Below, in pieces: positions 21,633 through 41,057 of a DNA stretch of 64,000 bases. The notes under the pieces were generated by a model. That model was not told where the DNA came from. It saw only the letters and a list, made by a program, of their open reading frames with translations, and did no database searches. Origin of the DNA: Alphaproteobacteria bacterium (lineage in GTDB: Bacteria; Pseudomonadota; Alphaproteobacteria; Rs-D84); NCBI GenBank assembly GCA_017522445.1, contig JAFWZK010000014.1, positions 21,783 to 85,782 on the forward strand, given 5' to 3'. Numbering within the stretch: position 1 is the stretch's first letter; every line of letters starts with the position of its first letter. A program made the translations under genes and the position numbers.

Positions 21633-21971
21633 ATGCCTGGGTGCGGGCGCACGGGTCCCTTACAACCGTTAAAAACCTTAGAAAACAAACATTTTTCGAT
21701 TTTTAAAACTAATATTTTGCTGGTCTTGATTGACACTTTGCTTTACACACTTGATTATAACACAAATAAATTAAAAGCACAGTATTTTTTATAACCACGT
21801 AACCACATAACCAGAAATAATATTGAAATTATCCCTAAACTGCGATAGAATTAAACCAGAATCCAGTGGGAATTGGATTCGGGACTGTGATAAGTCCAGA
21901 TTACACGGTGCAAATACGCATCGTTATCTTGATATAATGGTGCGTTGCGCCGTTATGTCCCTGACCTTTGT

Positions 21972-22081
21972 GGTCGGGGGGCTGTTGGCTATACAACAGG
22001 GGAAACCTAAAGGCCACGGAATCACTTGTAATCTGATTTATCAACTCCCCGACCGTCTTATTCCCTATGGCGGTCTTTTTT
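21972..22081 (+). promoter_or_regulatory. Conserved structured 5' leader, copy A (candidate riboswitch or attenuator with terminator)
   Basis: The outer helix is GGUCGGGG(21972-79) paired with CCCCGACC(22047-54). The inner helix uggc/gcca encloses the conserved UAUACAACAGGG...AAAG. A terminator hairpin gaccg...cggtc followed by U6 lies at 22051-22081, about 20 nt before the lipoprotein start codon. Confidence 0.55.
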
Positions 22082-22101
22082 ACACTTACAAGGGGATAGA
22101 T

Positions 22102-22542
22102 ATGAAAAAAATCATTTTTATTTTGCCTATAATATTACTGTGTGCATGCCAAACTAAAATATTTTACCCATACGATGGCACAAAAACAATAACTGGCGAT
22201 GGTGGTTTTGTATGGACACATATACCCGCATCCAATTTGGGCAAGCCCATGTTTGGCAAAACGCCAAAATATAAATACGACAGTGTAGCATTTTATGAAT
22301 CTGGACTACCCGCAGGTGCAAAATGTACCTTAGTTGGTTATTATGCAGCATCTGACATAAAACAATTTGCCAGAAAGATGCTTGAAATGGATGCAAATGT
22401 CGCAACCAAATCCCCTGTTATTCTGCCTATCAGCTTTGATAATAATGCTGGCATACTCGGTGGCACACGTGCAGCCAGCGATTGGTATAACGTGGACAAC
22501 ATAAAAGTTGCCACTGGGTTTAATATTTTTGAATGTAAATAA
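22102..22542 (+). CDS. Small lipoprotein or secreted protein
   Basis: The track ORF is trimmed to MKKIIFILPIILLCAC, a lipobox-like signal, with an AGGGGA ribosome-binding site 6 nt upstream. The mature part is Gly/Tyr-rich. Confidence 0.6.
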   Translation: MKKIIFILPIILLCACQTKIFYPYDGTKTITGDGGFVWTHIPASNLGKPMFGKTPKYKYDSVAFYESGLPAGAKCTLVGYYAASDIKQFARKMLEMDANVATKSPVILPISFDNNAGILGGTRAASDWYNVDNIKVATGFNIFECK

Positions 22543-22553
22543 AGGAGTAAAAC

Positions 22554-22736
22554 ATGAAAAAAGAAAACATTGGTGCAGTATTTATGATGTTAGTGTACAT
22601 ACTGGGCTTTTACGGCTATGTAAATAATATTGTTCGCATTTGGGATTGTGATACATCTTCGTGCCGTACAATTCGTGTGATAGGTGCAATAACAACCATT
22701 CCAGGGGCTGTTATGGGCTTTATAGATTTTGATTAA
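22554..22736 (+). CDS. Small membrane protein
   Basis: 60-aa ORF with an AAGGAG ribosome-binding site and one TM helix, 11 nt after the preceding gene. Confidence 0.4.
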   Translation: MKKENIGAVFMMLVYILGFYGYVNNIVRIWDCDTSSCRTIRVIGAITTIPGAVMGFIDFD

Positions 22737-22758
22737 AATAAAACAAAAGGAGCGAAAT

Positions 22759-22959
22759 ATGAAAAAAATGATAATTATCGCAATCATAGCCACTTTTACA
22801 GGTATATCCGATGCAGATGCGGGCTATTACAGAACAAAAAACACCTTTACAGGTGGCTATACATCAACAGGACGTACCAATAATCTGGGTATGCGTCGTG
22901 CACCCGCTGGATATCACACAAATTCGTACGGTATCGTACAGAAAAACAATCCATTTTAA
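22759..22959 (+). CDS. Small secreted Gly/Tyr/Thr-rich protein
   Basis: ATG at 22759 after an AAGGAG ribosome-binding site, with a signal peptide (MKKMIIIAIIATFTGISDA). Confidence 0.45.
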   Translation: MKKMIIIAIIATFTGISDADAGYYRTKNTFTGGYTSTGRTNNLGMRRAPAGYHTNSYGIVQKNNPF

Positions 22960-22962
22960 CAA

Positions 22963-23439
22963 ATGGGGTATAATATGAACAAAGTAAAAAGAATTGCAAC
23001 CATAGCAATTATCTGCATAATAGCATCCGCTATTGGCGTAAGTATTTATAACTACACCCAAAACCAAAAGATAAAAAAACAGCAAGAAGATTGCCAAAAT
23101 TTAGCACACGAATTCTTTATTGATACTTTTGGTACGGCGGACGATATATACGATTATTGCAAAACCACAAAAGAACAAGAACTGTATAAGAAAAACAAAA
23201 AATTATATGGACTTGATGGCGCAACACTAGAAGACCATCAAAAAATATTCGCATTATGCGAATGTGCCACAGCCAATTTATACAAAACCATTATTCAGCC
23301 TTGGTTGGACAAATGTTATGCTAACGATGCGACATGGCTTTTAGAACCAGCAAGAATGAAAACAACCATTCAAAAAGACCATAAAATTAAAAACCTCTTC
23401 ATTGATACCAGTTATGAATTATGTGAAAGATTTAACTAA
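22963..23439 (+). CDS. Membrane-anchored Cys-containing hypothetical protein
   Basis: 158-aa ORF. The alternative start at 22975 (MNKVKRIA) follows a GGGG motif. It has an N-terminal TM segment. Confidence 0.45.
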   Translation: MGYNMNKVKRIATIAIICIIASAIGVSIYNYTQNQKIKKQQEDCQNLAHEFFIDTFGTADDIYDYCKTTKEQELYKKNKKLYGLDGATLEDHQKIFALCECATANLYKTIIQPWLDKCYANDATWLLEPARMKTTIQKDHKIKNLFIDTSYELCERFN

Positions 23440-23571: not shown

Positions 23572-23764
23572 AAACATTTCAGATAATCGAAAGTTCAACA
23601 CGTGGTGAACGCAAAATAATTTACCAATTCCCAAGGTTTATATTTTCTGTATGTATTGAATATCCCGCATTATGCTGCGTTAGTCGTTTCTTTAAATCAT
23701 CGGTTTGCCCGATGTATTTTTGTTCTGGATGGGAAATGCTTTTTATAAGATAGACATAAAACAT

Positions 23765-23902
23765 TTATAAGTCCCCCTTCGTTAAAACTTCGGGCGACAC
23801 TACTTCGCCTATGCTTCTCGGCTTGTGTGGCCTGTATAAGTCCCCCTTCGTTAAAACTTCGGGCGACACTACTTCGCGATAACTGCTCCGCCTGTGTGGC
23901 CT
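23765..23902. repeat. Tandem direct repeat, 2 x 69 nt
   Basis: Units at 23765-23833 and 23834-23902 share an identical 43-nt 5' portion (tataagtcccccttcgttaaaacttcgggcgacactacttcgc) and a conserved 3' end (tgtgtggcctg). Confidence 0.8.
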
Positions 23903-23933
23903 GCCACACGAAGCGTCGCAGACGCGAAGTGTG
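23903..23933 (-). other. Interrupted palindrome abutting and overlapping the tRNA-Gln 3'-CCA
   Basis: The sequence ccacac-gaa-gcgtc-gca-gacgc-gaa-gtgtgg is a perfect two-tier hairpin. Its gtgtgg arm supplies the CCA of tRNA-Gln, and no U-run follows it. Confidence 0.6.
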
Positions 23934-24005
23934 GTTGGGGCGCACGGATTCGAACCATGATAAAGAGAACCAAAATCTCTTGTCCTACCATTAGACGACA
24001 CCCCA
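23931..24005 (-). tRNA. tRNA-Gln (anticodon UUG)
   Basis: The reverse-complement is UGGGGUG...AGAGA-UUUUGGU-UCUCU...CAUGG-UUCGAAU-CCGUG-CGCCCCA-A-CCA, with the same architecture as E. coli tRNA-Gln. Confidence 0.85.
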
Positions 24006-24257
24006 AAAGCAACATTGATTATAATTATCTTTTGTAAATTTGCAATAATAAATTTTTGTTTGATTAAAACCGTGATTGGTTTCTGGTTATGTCGCACAAA
24101 AACGGTGGTCAAAAATCGCCATTGGCATATTCGACAATAAATGCCCTGTTTCCATTAGGTGTTGTAACTTCGTACAATGGCACGTTCAGCCCATCTGACC
24201 AGAAATTGTATGACAACAATTATCAAAAGATGCGAAATCTGTTTAACTAACTATAAA

Positions 24258-24283
24258 AGTGCCACATCCGTGGCATTTTTTTC
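24258..24283 (+). terminator. Orphan intrinsic terminator (gtgccacatccgtggca followed by T7)
   Basis: Good hairpin and U-run inside a 630-nt intergenic region with no protein ORF upstream on this strand. Confidence 0.5.
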
Positions 24284-24507
24284 ATCTCGTGCAAAGAAAT
24301 ATTGATTTTAAGATGTTTTTTTTGTATCATAAACAATGAATCCACAGGTTAGTGGTTTCAGGGTCTTCAAAAACCTGTTAAACAACCGGCATAACAATCA
24401 TTGTTGTGCTGTAATCCGCACAAAAGAAATGGACGCGGATGCGTCTTTTTTTTGTGAAACACCTTTGGCACACCGTGTAATTCTTTTACATGTTTTCCAC
24501 ATTGTGT

Positions 24508-24625
24508 GTCGGGGTGCTGCCGGCTATACCACAGGGGCATGGCCCCAAAGGCCGGCGGGAATCATTGTTGTTTATGGTTTTTTGAACACCCCGACCACCG
24601 TATCTGTATGGTGGTTATTTTATTG
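24508..24625 (+). promoter_or_regulatory. Conserved structured 5' leader, copy B
   Basis: The outer helix is GUCGGGG(24508-14) paired with CCCCGAC(24589-95). The inner helix gccggc/gccggc encloses UAUACCACAGGGG, a ggggcauggcccc hairpin and AAAG. A terminator gaccacc...ggugguu followed by a U-rich run lies at 24593-24625, and the start codon is at 24640. Confidence 0.55.
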
Positions 24626-24639
24626 TCGGGGGGCGATAG

Positions 24640-25527
24640 ATGTTTCGCAGGATTGTTTTTCCTGTTATTTATATGTTGTTGTTTATTTGCACTGCATATG
24701 CACAAATGCAGTGTGATGACAGCAAGTGCTGGCATACATTAAATTTTGGTGAACATTCTGTACGTGCCTATGACAAACGTTCTACAACCCCGTCAATTTG
24801 TATTCAGGACACATCTGGTCAAATCTGGTATGTTAACATGGTTTTGGGGATGTTGCCACAAACACTGCATGCCCAGCAGGGTACAGAAATATATTCCGCA
24901 ACAGATGCACTGTATGAAATTGTTGATGGACGACTGGTATGGGCACATCCTGATATTTATTTGCAAAGCAGTGGCACCCAGTACATAGATACCGGTATTA
25001 CACCATCAGACACACTGGGGTTGCGATTTGATTATCTGCGTGAAAGTGGTACATCAGATCATGTGCTGATTGGGTCGCAATTGGAAATTGGTTCGGCCGT
25101 TCCTGAATATGCCCGCTTTACATTGGGGCAAAGCAACAGCCCATATTATGGATGGAATACGTATCGGCATACTGGGTTAAGTATCACGGAACGTTATTTG
25201 GTCAACTTGAATTACATGAACAGTCGTGAAGTTACGTACAATGGTGCGGTTGTTAAAACGGGGCTGGATACACATCTTGACAATCCGTACTCTATTTATG
25301 TATTCTGCACGAACCGCAAAGGGACGGCATCTGTTTGTTCCAAGATAAAAGTGTATTCTGCGATATTAACGGACGGCGCGGAAACGGTTATGCATTTGGT
25401 TCCTGTGCCATCAGGTCTGCAGATTGGTGATTTTACAGTTCCATCAAACGGCATGTTTGATATTGTTTCTCAGAAATTTTATGGCAATTCTGGCACGGGT
25501 GATTTTGAATTTGGCACAGATTATTAA
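24640..25527 (+). CDS. Secreted hypothetical protein
   Basis: 295 aa with a signal peptide (MFRRIVFPVIYMLLFICTAYA) and no recognisable domain. Its GGGG..GATAGatg start context is shared with the 22102 lipoprotein gene. Confidence 0.6.
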   Translation: MFRRIVFPVIYMLLFICTAYAQMQCDDSKCWHTLNFGEHSVRAYDKRSTTPSICIQDTSGQIWYVNMVLGMLPQTLHAQQGTEIYSATDALYEIVDGRLVWAHPDIYLQSSGTQYIDTGITPSDTLGLRFDYLRESGTSDHVLIGSQLEIGSAVPEYARFTLGQSNSPYYGWNTYRHTGLSITERYLVNLNYMNSREVTYNGAVVKTGLDTHLDNPYSIYVFCTNRKGTASVCSKIKVYSAILTDGAETVMHLVPVPSGLQIGDFTVPSNGMFDIVSQKFYGNSGTGDFEFGTDY

Positions 25528-39785: not shown

Positions 39786-39816
39786 AAGTTCCGCCCACAT
39801 TGGGCGGATTTTTTTA
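39786..39816. terminator. Bidirectional intrinsic terminator (ccgcccacattgggcgg)
   Basis: Hairpin flanked by A- and T-runs, lying between the convergent yidC and Stealth genes. Confidence 0.7.
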
Positions 39817-40803
39817 TATTTCGAATTGTGATTTATCTGGAAACTTTTTATTTAAAAATTCCCAGTTTTTTTGTCTGACCTTATCGGATGTATTTGCACT
39901 GTCGTTTATGCAGAACAGTGGTGGGTTTACGTGCTGCATTGCCCGTTCCGCATTTTCGCAATACAGTGGTGCGTTTTTGCATTCGTGATGATGTGTAATA
40001 TTATACAGAAAATGTCGTGCACGTTTAAAATGTCTGGCCCGTTTCAGTATTGCACGTCCGTGCACAAAGTCATACAGATTAAAAATCCATCGTTGCAGTT
40101 CCCAGTTTGTTCTGAATTTATTTCTGATTTGCATATCAAAGTGTTGCACCAGCAAAGGGTGATTTCTGCATTGTATCATCGAAGATTTGATATATGGGTC
40201 GATATTATGTGCAGGTGCCATTTGCAGTAATTTTTTTCCAAATATTTTATGCAATTTGTGTGCCGCCATCAGAATAGTTTTTCTGTAATCAGATTCAACC
40301 ATTTCCATTGCGTATCCGACATTGCTGATTTTTTTATTTTGTGTATACCATACAATTGCTCGTCCTTGTTTGTCATAAAAGAAATCTGGTGTCAGTGGTT
40401 TGTTAAAGAACATATCATCATTTGCCAACAAGAAATGTTCACTCAGGTTTGGTATATTCATGATACACATTTCAATTGCAACCGAATTGAACGTAGGCAG
40501 ACTGTCTGCCGGCATAATTTGTTCATGTGAAACAATTGTGATTTTTGGATTGTTTGTGTTCAGCCATTTTGGTATCTGGCCAAATCCTGTCACGATAAAG
40601 ATATGGTTTATCCAAGGTGCGTATTTTTCTGCACTTCGCAGGGCGAATTTTAATTCATCATTATCCCTCCATCGGGCATCCACGGTTGAGTCATGACAGA
40701 CGGCGACCTGTTTTTTTATTTTTTGCAGCCAGAAATTTTTTTCTGTTATCCAGTTTTTATCACTGCCATCAACCCACATATACACTAAATCAATTTTTTT
40801 CAT
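39814..40803 (-). CDS. Stealth-family hexose-1-phosphoryltransferase (CR1-CR3 motifs present)
   Basis: Trimmed to the internal start MKKIDLVYMWVDGSD, which is Stealth CR1. It also carries DNDELKFALRSAEKYAPWINHIFIVT (CR2) and FNSVAIEMCIMNIPNLSEHFLLANDDMFF (CR3). An AAAGGA ribosome-binding site precedes the start. The track's 5' extension would overlap leader C. Confidence 0.85.
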   Translation of the reverse strand: MKKIDLVYMWVDGSDKNWITEKNFWLQKIKKQVAVCHDSTVDARWRDNDELKFALRSAEKYAPWINHIFIVTGFGQIPKWLNTNNPKITIVSHEQIMPADSLPTFNSVAIEMCIMNIPNLSEHFLLANDDMFFNKPLTPDFFYDKQGRAIVWYTQNKKISNVGYAMEMVESDYRKTILMAAHKLHKIFGKKLLQMAPAHNIDPYIKSSMIQCRNHPLLVQHFDMQIRNKFRTNWELQRWIFNLYDFVHGRAILKRARHFKRARHFLYNITHHHECKNAPLYCENAERAMQHVNPPLFCINDSANTSDKVRQKNWEFLNKKFPDKSQFEI

Positions 40804-40828
40804 TTTTATGTCCTTTGATTTTGCCAAC

Positions 40829-40931
40829 AAAAAACCGTCAAAAATTGACGGCCGGGCATTTTCAAGGTCATAAATCCAAATGACTCTGTGGCTTTCGGGA
40901 ATCCCTGTTGTATAACCACAGATACCCGACC
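40829..40931 (-). promoter_or_regulatory. Conserved structured 5' leader, copy C
   Basis: On the minus strand the outer helix is GGUCGGG(40931-25) paired with CCCGGCC(40856-50), including one U-G wobble. The inner helix cugugg/ccacag encloses UAUACAACAGGG, a gggauuccc hairpin and AAAG. The terminator ccgucaa-uuu-uugacgg followed by U6 lies at 40851-40829, and the start codon is at 40803. Confidence 0.55.
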
Positions 40932-41057
40932 TCACATGGGGGTCAGGTTACATATCGACACGCATTGCGTGCCGTGGATTTATGGGTCTTGAAAACCCAG
41001 ACCTTTGATTATCAGGTCGATGGCATTATGCCCCAGAAAAATAAAATTTTCAACTGA

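Follow-up and report, generated by a model that had tools for sequence, protein, structure and literature searches.

What lies immediately upstream of the gene for a 295-residue secreted protein, how far does it reach and how might it act on that gene? The question is raised by positions 24508 to 24625 of a stretch of 64,000 nucleotides (nt) from an Alphaproteobacteria bacterium (assembly GCA_017522445.1, contig JAFWZK010000014.1, positions 21,783 to 85,782 of the forward strand), hereafter the window, where an initial annotation had described a structured 5' leader (leader B) with an intrinsic terminator in front of the gene. All the helices described there are present in the sequence. The interval had, however, been taken for the whole unit, while its 118 bases are only the 3' half of a structured leader of about 290 nt (roughly 24337-24625, plus strand) that begins near 24337 with its own promoter and a 5' domain. 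Furthermore, the window holds three such leaders rather than the two announced, the third (C) lying on the minus strand in front of a Stealth gene. On the strength of this anatomy we lean, without great assurance, towards leader B being a cis-acting attenuator switch that would operate by premature transcription termination before surface-protein genes. Comparison of sequences and covariance models indicates that the leaders are distant relatives of sRNA-Xcc1 (Rfam RF02221), in the form of an expanded, terminator-coupled variant, a kinship that is missing from the initial annotation.

Anatomy of leader B and its copies in the window

The features of leader B, from 5' to 3', are the following.

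24302-24330, plus strand: promoter-like site, TTGATT-17 nt-TATCAT, with a predicted transcription start near 24337
24338-24359, plus strand: H1, 5'-terminal hairpin, GAAUCCAC-AGGUUA-GUGGUUUC
24361-24376, plus strand: H2, hairpin, GGGU-CUUCAAAA-ACCU, whose loop UUCAAAA (24366-24372) is the 5' strand of the long-range helix PK1
24380-24386, plus strand: AAACAAC, 5' strand of the long-range helix PK2, whose partner is the P3 loop
24431-24454, plus strand: T1, internal terminator-like hairpin, GACGC-GGAU-GCGUC (stem 24431-24446) then U8
24508-24516 with 24587-24595, plus strand: P1, GUCGGGGUG with CACCCCGAC, nine pairs
24517-24524 with 24551-24558, plus strand: P2, CUGCCGGC with GCCGGCGG, the gccggc/gccggc helix of the initial annotation
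24525-24533 opposite 24547-24550, plus strand: conserved internal loop of P2, UAUACCACA opposite AAAG
24534-24546, plus strand: P2a, GGGGCAUGGCCCC, the inner hairpin GGGGC-AUG-GCCCC
24559-24565 with 24574-24580, plus strand: P3, GAAUCAU with AUGGUUU
24567-24573, plus strand: P3 loop, GUUGUUU, 3' strand of PK2
24580-24586, plus strand: J3/1, UUUUGAA, which doubles as the 3' strand of PK1
24593-24625, plus strand: T2, intrinsic terminator with a 10-pair stem (terminator scan), GACCACC-N10-GGUGGUU (24593-24616) then AUUUUAUU
24628-24633, plus strand: G-rich Shine-Dalgarno sequence, GGGGGG, with the start codon at 24640-24642
24640-25527, plus strand: gene of the 295-residue secreted protein, predicted to be mostly beta-sandwich

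T2 has the make-up of an intrinsic terminator, a G+C-rich hairpin followed by a U-rich tract (ATTTTATT after the stem 24593-24616), and it is found with T1 among the 5 sites returned by the terminator scan against 0.6 expected. The promoter is the sole sigma-70-like site within 24200-24700, and the same scan found no promoter-like site between T2 and the ATG. In leader B, 44 nt separate the end of P1 from the ATG, and in most relatives 43-53 nt, a spacing that leaves a promoter no room, so that the downstream gene would depend on read-through. Attenuation by a leader peptide or upstream open reading frame (ORF) was rejected because the ATG at 24336 is not conserved, relatives having UUG, CUG or AUG at this place. 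As for T1, it may be a first attenuation point or merely a structural helix; AUCCGC (24414-24419), located 5' of it, could alternatively pair with its GCGGAU. An A-rich run of leader B, GCACAAAAGAAA, could also pair with the U-tract of T1.

Three results show this arrangement to exceed chance by far. Folded by itself, the junction reaches -48.6 kcal/mol (z = -3.8 versus dinucleotide shuffles). A low-stringency blastn search with the leader B region returned one clear relative in the window, at 21968-22101 (69% over 143 nt, E 4e-12), which corresponds to copy A. Lastly, the covariance model R1, built from relatives and run unfiltered over the 64-kb window, recovered three copies: A at 21971-22056 on the plus strand (92.5 bits), B at 24506-24598 on the plus strand (72.2 bits, E 3e-14) and C at 40848-40932 on the minus strand (60.8 bits), the reverse-strand scores being 18.7 bits for A and 12.2 bits for B. 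A direct-repeat finder had overlooked the copies on account of their excess divergence and indels. A further candidate at 240-252, suggested by the start-context pattern, was discarded, as it lies inside a coding-looking region of the minus strand and has no leader. The elements of copies A and C are as follows.

21823-22104, plus strand: leader A with its promoter, preceding a 146-residue lipoprotein-like gene (22102-22542, MKKIIFILPIILLCAC...)
21823-21851, plus strand: promoter of leader A, TTGAAA-17-TAGAAT
21859-21880, plus strand: H1 of leader A
21881-21897, plus strand: H2 of leader A
21958-21965, plus strand: anti-P1 box of leader A, UCCCUGAC
21973-22053, plus strand: junction of leader A
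22051-22081, plus strand: terminator of leader A
Within leader A, plus strand: PK1, UGAUA with UAUCA; PK2, GAUUAC with GUAAUC
40803-41018, minus strand: leader C, preceding a Stealth-family gene (39814-40803, minus strand)
40983-40999, minus strand: H2 of leader C
40942-40949, minus strand: segment holding the anti-P1 box of leader C, ACCUGAC
40851-40930, minus strand: junction of leader C
40828-40853, minus strand: terminator of leader C
Within leader C, minus strand: PK1, UUUCAAG with CUUGAAA; PK2, AAAUCCA with UGGAUUU

The gene behind leader C encodes the Stealth domains CR1, CR2 and CR4. Co-regulation of the secreted protein with a Stealth enzyme had been put forward beforehand, and the position of copy C makes such a common regulon plausible. 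A second proposal, that A and B share a GGGG(N)GATAGatg start context, fares less well: the two are loosely alike (GGGGGGCGATAG-ATG in B and AAGGGGATAGAT-ATG in A) but stand in a different register, a pattern search did not retrieve A, and GATAG is missing from the leaders of the B orthologues L007, L009 and L011. What is kept at the start region instead is a G-rich Shine-Dalgarno sequence together with the spacing between P1 and the ATG. Downstream of leader A and its 146-residue gene, three small ORFs (60, 66 and about 154 residues; 22554-23439) each begin with a hydrophobic N-terminus and are each preceded by an AGGAG-type ribosome-binding site; they show no Pfam match above the curated cut-off and are probably co-transcribed with the gene that leader A would control.

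Covariation of the junction and of two long-range helices

Relatives of the leader were collected by a pattern scan of one genome per species, which gave 97 stretches and, with the loci obtained earlier, 112 instances (87 distinct); R1 matches number 107 (87 distinct) from 100 sources. Nearly all hosts are titled Candidatus Enterousia or uncultured Alphaproteobacteria and come from the ruminant, chicken, mouse or human gut, and several genomes carry 3-6 copies. Hexamers resembling -35 and -10 boxes were seen by eye at an equal distance 5' of H1 in most of these leaders. Viral contigs gave zero matches to the leader pattern, and a phage origin was rejected for this reason.

In an alignment of the 87 distinct sequences, which is fitted to the R1 model itself, 13 of the 24 junction pairs show compensatory changes and 97% of the cells are paired, a result that none of 500 shuffles matches, whereas pairing drops to 35-52% when the alignment is slid. 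As examples, one P2 pair occurs as U-A 46, C-G 31 and U-G 9 times and one P1 pair as A-U 31, G-U 27 and U-A 20 times; G-U is frequent throughout, one P2 pair being U-G in 27 cases and one P1 pair G-U in 27. For the whole RNA, 34 full-length leaders were aligned by MAFFT from sequence only and folded with RNAalifold, and pairs were counted for the specified structure. Compensatory changes affect 30 of 64 pairs, and the values were reached by 0 of 500 shuffles on four of five measures and by 11 of 500 on the fifth (further pair types).

This analysis reveals a conserved 5' domain upstream of every copy, with the elements H1, H2, H4 and H5 and the two long-range helices PK1 and PK2. H1 has compensatory changes at 4 of 8 pairs (96% of cells paired), and in the H2 stem GC alternates with AU and CG with UA. 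The strongest covariation of the whole RNA resides in PK1 and PK2. In PK1, which joins the H2 loop to J3/1, 3 of 4 pairs are compensatory (in 13-20 of the 34 sequences), and in PK2, which joins the segment right after H2 to the P3 loop, all 7 of 7 are (for example G-C 12, U-A 10, C-G 9). The same can be seen by eye between orthologous leaders, UUCAAAA:UUUUGAA of PK1 in B being replaced by UAGAAAA:UUUUCUA in L007, whose PK2 is CAACAAG:CUUGUUG. Moreover, A, B and C carry three distinct sets of PK1 and PK2 sequences, each internally complementary. An alignment-free comparison gives the same picture: the longest Watson-Crick complement of the P3 loop averages 7.9 nt in its own 5' domain and 5.0 nt in those of other leaders, complements of at least 7 nt occur in 74 of 84 own pairings and in 6% of non-own ones, and J3/1 reaches 6.1 nt in its own 5' domain against 4.5 nt elsewhere. 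As H2 and P3 themselves show compensatory changes, PK1 and PK2 may coexist with them in the form of two H-type pseudoknots.

Two other pairings were considered. One between a 5' GGGG and the 3' CCCC of P1, proposed by RNAalifold, was dropped in favor of the H2 stem because two sequences with an A at this place keep H2 (A-U) and break the long-range pair. Complementarity between the flank of the Shine-Dalgarno sequence and the P3 loop is visible in copy A and in canonical sRNA-Xcc1 members; as a general trait of Enterousia leaders it was rejected, the own and non-own values being 4.5 and 4.6 nt.

A terminator fused to the closing helix

In leader B, the GAC at 24593-24595 is shared, being at once the last three bases of P1 and the first three of the T2 stem. 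A hairpin with a U-run that starts at this GAC of P1 is found in 78 of 86 leaders, and the GAC lies within the stem in 76 of them; in L082 and L101, an A to G change in P1 is accompanied by a U to C change in the 3' strand of the terminator. Leader B and most of its relatives display two of the marks of an attenuator or terminating riboswitch, namely a covarying structured domain and a terminator that shares bases of the sensor helix just upstream of the ribosome-binding site.

A second competing element lies upstream, since a CCC(U)GAC box able to pair with the 5' strand of P1 precedes P1 by at most 45 nt in 80 of the 86 leaders. This anti-P1 helix is 97% paired, and its one pair outside P1 varies as U-A, U-G, C-G and A-U. 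Copy A combines a P1 GUCGGGG with the box CCCUGAC and copy C a P1 GUCGGGU with the box ACCUGAC, so that a G to U change in P1 goes with a C to A change in the anti-P1 box. In copy A, the fold with the anti-P1 helix and the full terminator has -41.9 kcal/mol, which is the minimum-energy fold, versus -36.9 for the fold with P1 fully closed; termination would therefore be the default unless PK1, PK2 or an effector stabilises the compact fold.

Relation to sRNA-Xcc1

At the Rfam gathering thresholds, the window and 18 related loci contain only tRNAs, and the link to sRNA-Xcc1 emerges only in E-value mode. RF02221, whose gathering cut-off is 53 bits, matches A with 41.5 bits (E 3e-5) and B with 28.9 bits (E 0.03), below the threshold yet over all 87 model positions; a Solimonas locus, L033, likewise scores 29.4 bits over positions 1-87, and canonical members from Aeromonas (71.6 bits) and Neisseria (68.8 bits) pass. 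Two other Rfam matches in or near leader B, to isrK at 24377-24451 (E 0.17) and to the Francisella FtrA at 24127-24281 (31.8 bits versus a cut-off of 134, E 0.05), were set aside, the first taken as a chance match driven by the terminator and the second most likely so.

The kinship rests on a set of shared traits. The two groups have in common a three-way junction that covers the whole model, with a nine-pair G/C-rich P1, a P3 hairpin, a J3/1 of about 7 nt and a short P2a, an ORF of like orientation about 50 nt downstream, and several copies per genome. They also share the asymmetric internal loop of P2, AUACAAnA opposite (G/A)AA in sRNA-Xcc1, UAUACCACA opposite AAAG in leader B and UAUACAACA opposite AAAG or GAAAG in A and C, a loop that does not vary between Alpha-, Beta- and Gammaproteobacteria and a Desulfovibrionales plasmid. 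On the other hand, P2a, often GNRA-capped in canonical members (CCC-GNRA-GGG), is flipped to GGG-GNAA-CC(C/U) in Enterousia and lengthened in leader B to 5 pairs without a GNRA loop (GGGGC-AUG-GCCCC). Enterousia leaders further differ by a terminator fused to P1 where canonical members have a Shine-Dalgarno-proximal module, by an extra 5' hairpin H1 and a helix H4, by a chromosomal setting instead of a mobile element, and by genes of secreted or surface proteins downstream instead of symE, BRO or ORF6N.

The platform also varies with the lineage, since the Solimonas locus L033 has no terminator and places its Shine-Dalgarno sequence, GGGGGAG, directly after P1. Cis sensors typically show this combination of one structured core with several expression platforms. 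In addition, UUGAUAA and CUCUGAAAG, located upstream in L033, complement its J3/1 and its P3 loop.

sRNA-Xcc1, as published, is a trans-acting small RNA, and its 87-nt Rfam model has no long-range pairings. We inspected four canonical loci, from Aeromonas and Neisseria (L111 and L112, both checked against Rfam) and from plasmids of Nitratidesulfovibrio and P. aeruginosa found by the same BLAST search and examined by eye. All 4 present the same succession: a small hairpin with a loop complementary to J3/1, a gap of about 1-5 nt, a complement of the P3 loop, a hairpin with a U-run, a spacer and then P1. This layout is found at the following places.

L111, 1070-1320: canonical locus with the full layout
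L112, 1070-1290: canonical locus with the full layout
L113, 1070-1320: canonical locus with the full layout
L114, 1085-1320: canonical locus with the full layout
L115-L206: metagenome loci with the layout

A scan of metagenomes for the canonical loop added 93 instances. In these, the longest complement of P3 plus J3/1 measures 7.9 nt in the own upstream region versus 6.3 nt in non-own ones, and complements of at least 8 nt are present in 63% of own and 12% of non-own comparisons, the partners lying 90-125 nt upstream. The intervening hairpin with its U-run, equivalent to T1, covaries (alignment columns 126-130 with 143-147, G-C 20 and A-U 16 at one pair) around a conserved loop, CCCGACAG. RNAalifold did not recover the long-range helices of canonical members owing to register shifts in the MAFFT alignment; they are documented by the own versus non-own complementarity and by eye, and the extended architecture is therefore common to canonical members and Enterousia leaders. 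Downstream of the canonical loci lie a BRO family gene (P. aeruginosa plasmid), a hypothetical gene (Nitratidesulfovibrio plasmid) and, by eye, an ORF6N-like gene (Aeromonas).

Canonical members show, in addition, a second module resembling H2 on the 3' side of P1, beside the Shine-Dalgarno sequence, for example in L113 (about 1300-1312, UCACAAAGGAGG), in L114 (about 1298-1310, CCAAGCAGAGG) and in many of L115-L206. Its complements measure 6.9 nt in own versus 5.5 nt in non-own comparisons and reach at least 8 nt in 26% versus 3.6%, such that the P3 loop and J3/1 of canonical members have possible partners both upstream and at the ribosome-binding site. By the same comparison, this second module is absent from Enterousia leaders.

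These relatives bring in a different explanation, according to which the leaders are independent genes of trans-acting small RNAs, stable and about 230-290 nt long, with the downstream ORF there by accident or served by occasional read-through; type II leaders, the subgroup with a long P2a that carries T1, could then release an additional short 5' RNA ending at T1. sRNA-Xcc1 was first cloned from Xanthomonas campestris as an RNA of about 88 nt and runs in Xanthomonas as a discrete Northern band of about 100 nt (PMC2996969), it is called trans-acting in the title of Chen et al. 2011, and Xylella has seven copies (PMC12189769), a multiplicity that the leaders share. The leaders also have their own promoter and intrinsic terminator, the H2 loop and next segment of an RNA released at T1 would complement the junction, and a target might be supplied by the second module that canonical members have near the Shine-Dalgarno sequence. 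Still, more than 80 instances keep the 43-53 nt spacing to an ATG with a Shine-Dalgarno sequence, the complementary partners reside on the same transcript and are copy-specific, relatives exchange the terminator for an adjoining Shine-Dalgarno sequence, and Enterousia leaders have no complementarity to target-like sites downstream (the 4.5 versus 4.6 nt given above). Altogether, we regard the small RNA explanation as unlikely. In the literature searched, we found no paper that gives a mechanism for sRNA-Xcc1, mentions Enterousia in that context or ties Enterousia to a riboswitch.

Distribution, downstream genes and apparent exchange of leaders

The leader is kept in front of the orthologues of the secreted-protein gene in L007 (69% identity), L009 (66%) and L011 (62%) and is absent upstream of L013, whose protein has 46% identity; the expectation that the motif would precede orthologous genes is thus borne out in the closer ones only. 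More generally, the first downstream ORF passes a crude signal-peptide test in 48 of 64 cases, and most of the remaining 16, including both genes of the window, look like signal peptides or lipoboxes by eye. About 85% of the downstream genes code for proteins with a signal peptide. Most of the products lack a Pfam domain, the matches being to a Listeria-Bacteroides repeat (4), Stealth (2), GT8 (1) and a TRL lipoprotein (1).

That the leader is a unit repeated ahead of unrelated ORFs had been suspected, and this is what the A-type leaders display. Those of L015 (755-1345) and L084 (1791-2200), from different species, are 93-95% identical over 246 nt to the leader in the window segment 21856-22542, an identity that extends to the Shine-Dalgarno sequence and to the AUGAAAAAA start, and their first ORFs have no significant similarity. 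Furthermore, the orthologous genes of the 295-residue protein have a type II leader in the window and in L007 and a type I leader in L009 and L011. Leaders thus appear, from these comparisons, to have been swapped between genes by recombination.

Such mobility is what one would expect of a constitutive and portable promoter with a stable 5' untranslated region, spread by recombination, whose leaky terminator would set a fixed level of expression and a fixed half-life without any sensing; the near-identical leaders before unrelated ORFs and the differing leader subtypes of orthologous genes both speak for it. A 5'-terminal hairpin is a classic RNA stabiliser, and H1 may be counted on the same side. 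A passive untranslated region has, however, no need of mutually exclusive pairings (anti-P1 against P1, P1 against the terminator for the GAC), nor does it explain an internal loop that is invariant across such distant bacteria, and conditional read-through is suggested by the terminator that 78 of 86 leaders place right before their ribosome-binding site. We hold the constitutive cassette to be quite unlikely.

A further reading takes the element to act as DNA and not as RNA, in the manner of a recombination site or of an attC-like repeat of integrons, since integron cassettes are where sRNA-Xcc1 was first found. In its favor, leaders appear to be exchanged between genes; sRNA-Xcc1 does occur in Xanthomonas integron cassettes, upstream of symE (bioRxiv 10.1101/2025.06.18.660453), as well as upstream of an ORF6N gene in an APSE phage (bioRxiv 10.1101/2020.03.17.996009), and a resolvase gene lies near the orthologous locus L011. 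Yet the common G-U pairs would be A-C mismatches on the opposite strand, the covariance scores are 72-92 bits for the forward strand and 12-19 bits for the reverse, the orientation to the gene is constant with promoter, terminator and Shine-Dalgarno sequence in register, and viral contigs yield no matches. A role at the DNA level appears very improbable to us.

Proposed mechanism and significance

The structure, its covariation, the overlap with the terminator, the association with genes of surface proteins and the phylogenetic spread are direct observations. We infer from the anatomy the rest of the attenuator switch: that regulation takes place, that there is a signal and in which direction the switch works. 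The leader would be transcribed from its own promoter and its junction tied to the 5' domain by PK1 and PK2. In the compact fold, P1 would close fully and withhold the GAC, so that the terminator would be weakened and transcription would read through to the ribosome-binding site and the gene (ON). With P1 open, the complete terminator would form and transcription would stop at about 24620-24625 (OFF), a state in which, in most relatives, the 5' strand of P1 would be captured by the upstream CCC(U)GAC box. The trigger could be a small molecule or an ion bound at the invariant loop, UAUACAACA opposite AAAG, or an RNA-binding protein; a ligand, a protein or a tertiary contact would most obviously be sought at this loop. 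The variety of surface proteins behind the leaders hints at no metabolite in particular. One type of leader would in this manner control many surface genes, those of secreted proteins, of lipoproteins and of Stealth and GT8 sugar transferases.

Several points weigh against this scheme. The overlap between P1 and the terminator is just 3 nt, and the minimum-energy fold of copy B combines six P1 pairs with the complete 10-pair terminator; P1 and T2 are therefore not strictly exclusive in B. Copy B is also one of the 6 leaders out of 86 without a CCC(U)GAC box, its best anti-P1 candidate being GCACACCG (24468-24475, 7 of 8 pairs), and it has the extra terminator-like hairpin T1. PK1 and PK2 could be alternatives to H2 and P3 instead of pseudoknots coexisting with them. 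The pattern used for retrieval fixed the 5' strand of P1 and the internal loop, and invariance at these places is in part an artefact of the search. Finally, the related RNA of Xanthomonas has been detected on its own, at about 88 nt (PMC2996969).

Two known types of systems offer a comparison. The terminating riboswitches for cyclic di-GMP (c-di-GMP-I and -II) are a functional analogy only: they share with the leaders a multi-helix junction with invariant unpaired nucleotides, docking of loops or pseudoknots, a terminator overlapping the closing helix, many copies before genes of secreted proteins, adhesins or exopolysaccharides, and platforms that vary with the lineage. The leaders differ from them by a much greater length (about 230-290 nt) and by hypervariable pseudoknot helices; they resemble none of the Rfam riboswitches in sequence or by model, and we claim no membership. 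In type I toxin mRNAs (hok/sok, aapA1), which fold back on themselves by long-distance 5'-3' interactions, covarying long-range pairings of the 5' leader decide on downstream expression, as may be the case here, and canonical sRNA-Xcc1 is found upstream of symE, a toxin-like gene. Unlike these mRNAs, the leaders precede ordinary secreted proteins and have no antisense partner gene, and their control would apparently rely on termination and not on processing-dependent translation.

A broader and more tentative idea, which we consider possible without expecting it, is that the whole sRNA-Xcc1 family is mis-scoped, the 87-nt RNA covering only the 3' domain of a larger sensor with two pseudoknots. 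This sensor would belong to an unrecognised riboswitch-like class in which PK1 and PK2 would serve as copy-specific addresses. Such a class would extend from Neisseria and Aeromonas as far as gut Alphaproteobacteria. Mobile elements would employ it as a gate on genes of the symE, BRO or ORF6N type, and Enterousia would have expanded it (three copies in 64 kb) into a master control of the secreted and surface proteome, with hypervariable PK1 and PK2 keeping the paralogous leaders of one cell from cross-pairing. If the attenuator reading is right, sRNA-Xcc1, an orphan for 15 years, would gain a larger and testable architecture with two covarying long-range helices, an internal hairpin and a defined expression platform, and its Rfam model would call for revision. 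The leaders would also offer an entry to gene control in the uncultured Candidatus Enterousia, a widespread lineage of the gut, where a single RNA element would stand over a large share of the host-facing secreted and surface proteins and of the transferases for surface sugars. They would also provide a new candidate sensor RNA whose invariant internal loop lends itself to screening for ligands or proteins, and a natural case of many paralogous leaders per genome with private pseudoknot sequences.

The secreted protein and neighbouring genes

The 295-residue protein has, as first described, an N-terminal segment resembling a signal peptide (MFRRIVFPVIYMLLFICTAYA|Q). It has no Pfam family match. 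Its 69 homologues, where named, come from uncultured Alphaproteobacteria, one distant homologue bears PF13385, and an identical protein is present on metagenome contigs. In the recommended structure and domain search, the AlphaFold2 model (38 homologues, pLDDT 76.9) is nearly all beta, and no fold match is significant. A profile search of the PDB gave a best E of 0.86, and Foldseek returned zero PDB matches at E <= 0.001, the best being 4dqa, a putative carbohydrate-binding protein of Bacteroides (E 0.02, TM 0.40), followed by LamG, pentraxin and CBM40 chains (E > 0.02). A secreted lectin-like beta-sandwich is a reasonable guess, given the weak resemblance of the predicted model to concanavalin-A-like and LamG folds.

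The neighbours in the window are ordinary chromosomal genes, such as gyrA, a MarR-OEP-MFP-AcrB efflux cluster and a pyruvate kinase. Upstream of leader B, two tandem repeats of 69 nt (23766-23903, 88% identical) have on one side a truncated GIY-YIG nuclease ORF of the minus strand (23621-23764, Pfam E 1e-8) and on the other a tRNA gene of that strand (23935-24005), and the region may be what is left of a mobile or homing element next to the tRNA. It is followed at 24089-24281 by an ORF of 53 residues and then a terminator (24260-24281). Directly 3' of the secreted-protein gene, the segment 25629-31060 encodes a MarR-family regulator, a TolC-like outer-membrane factor, a 195-residue protein and an AcrB-type RND pump, in an order that is kept in L007 and L013.

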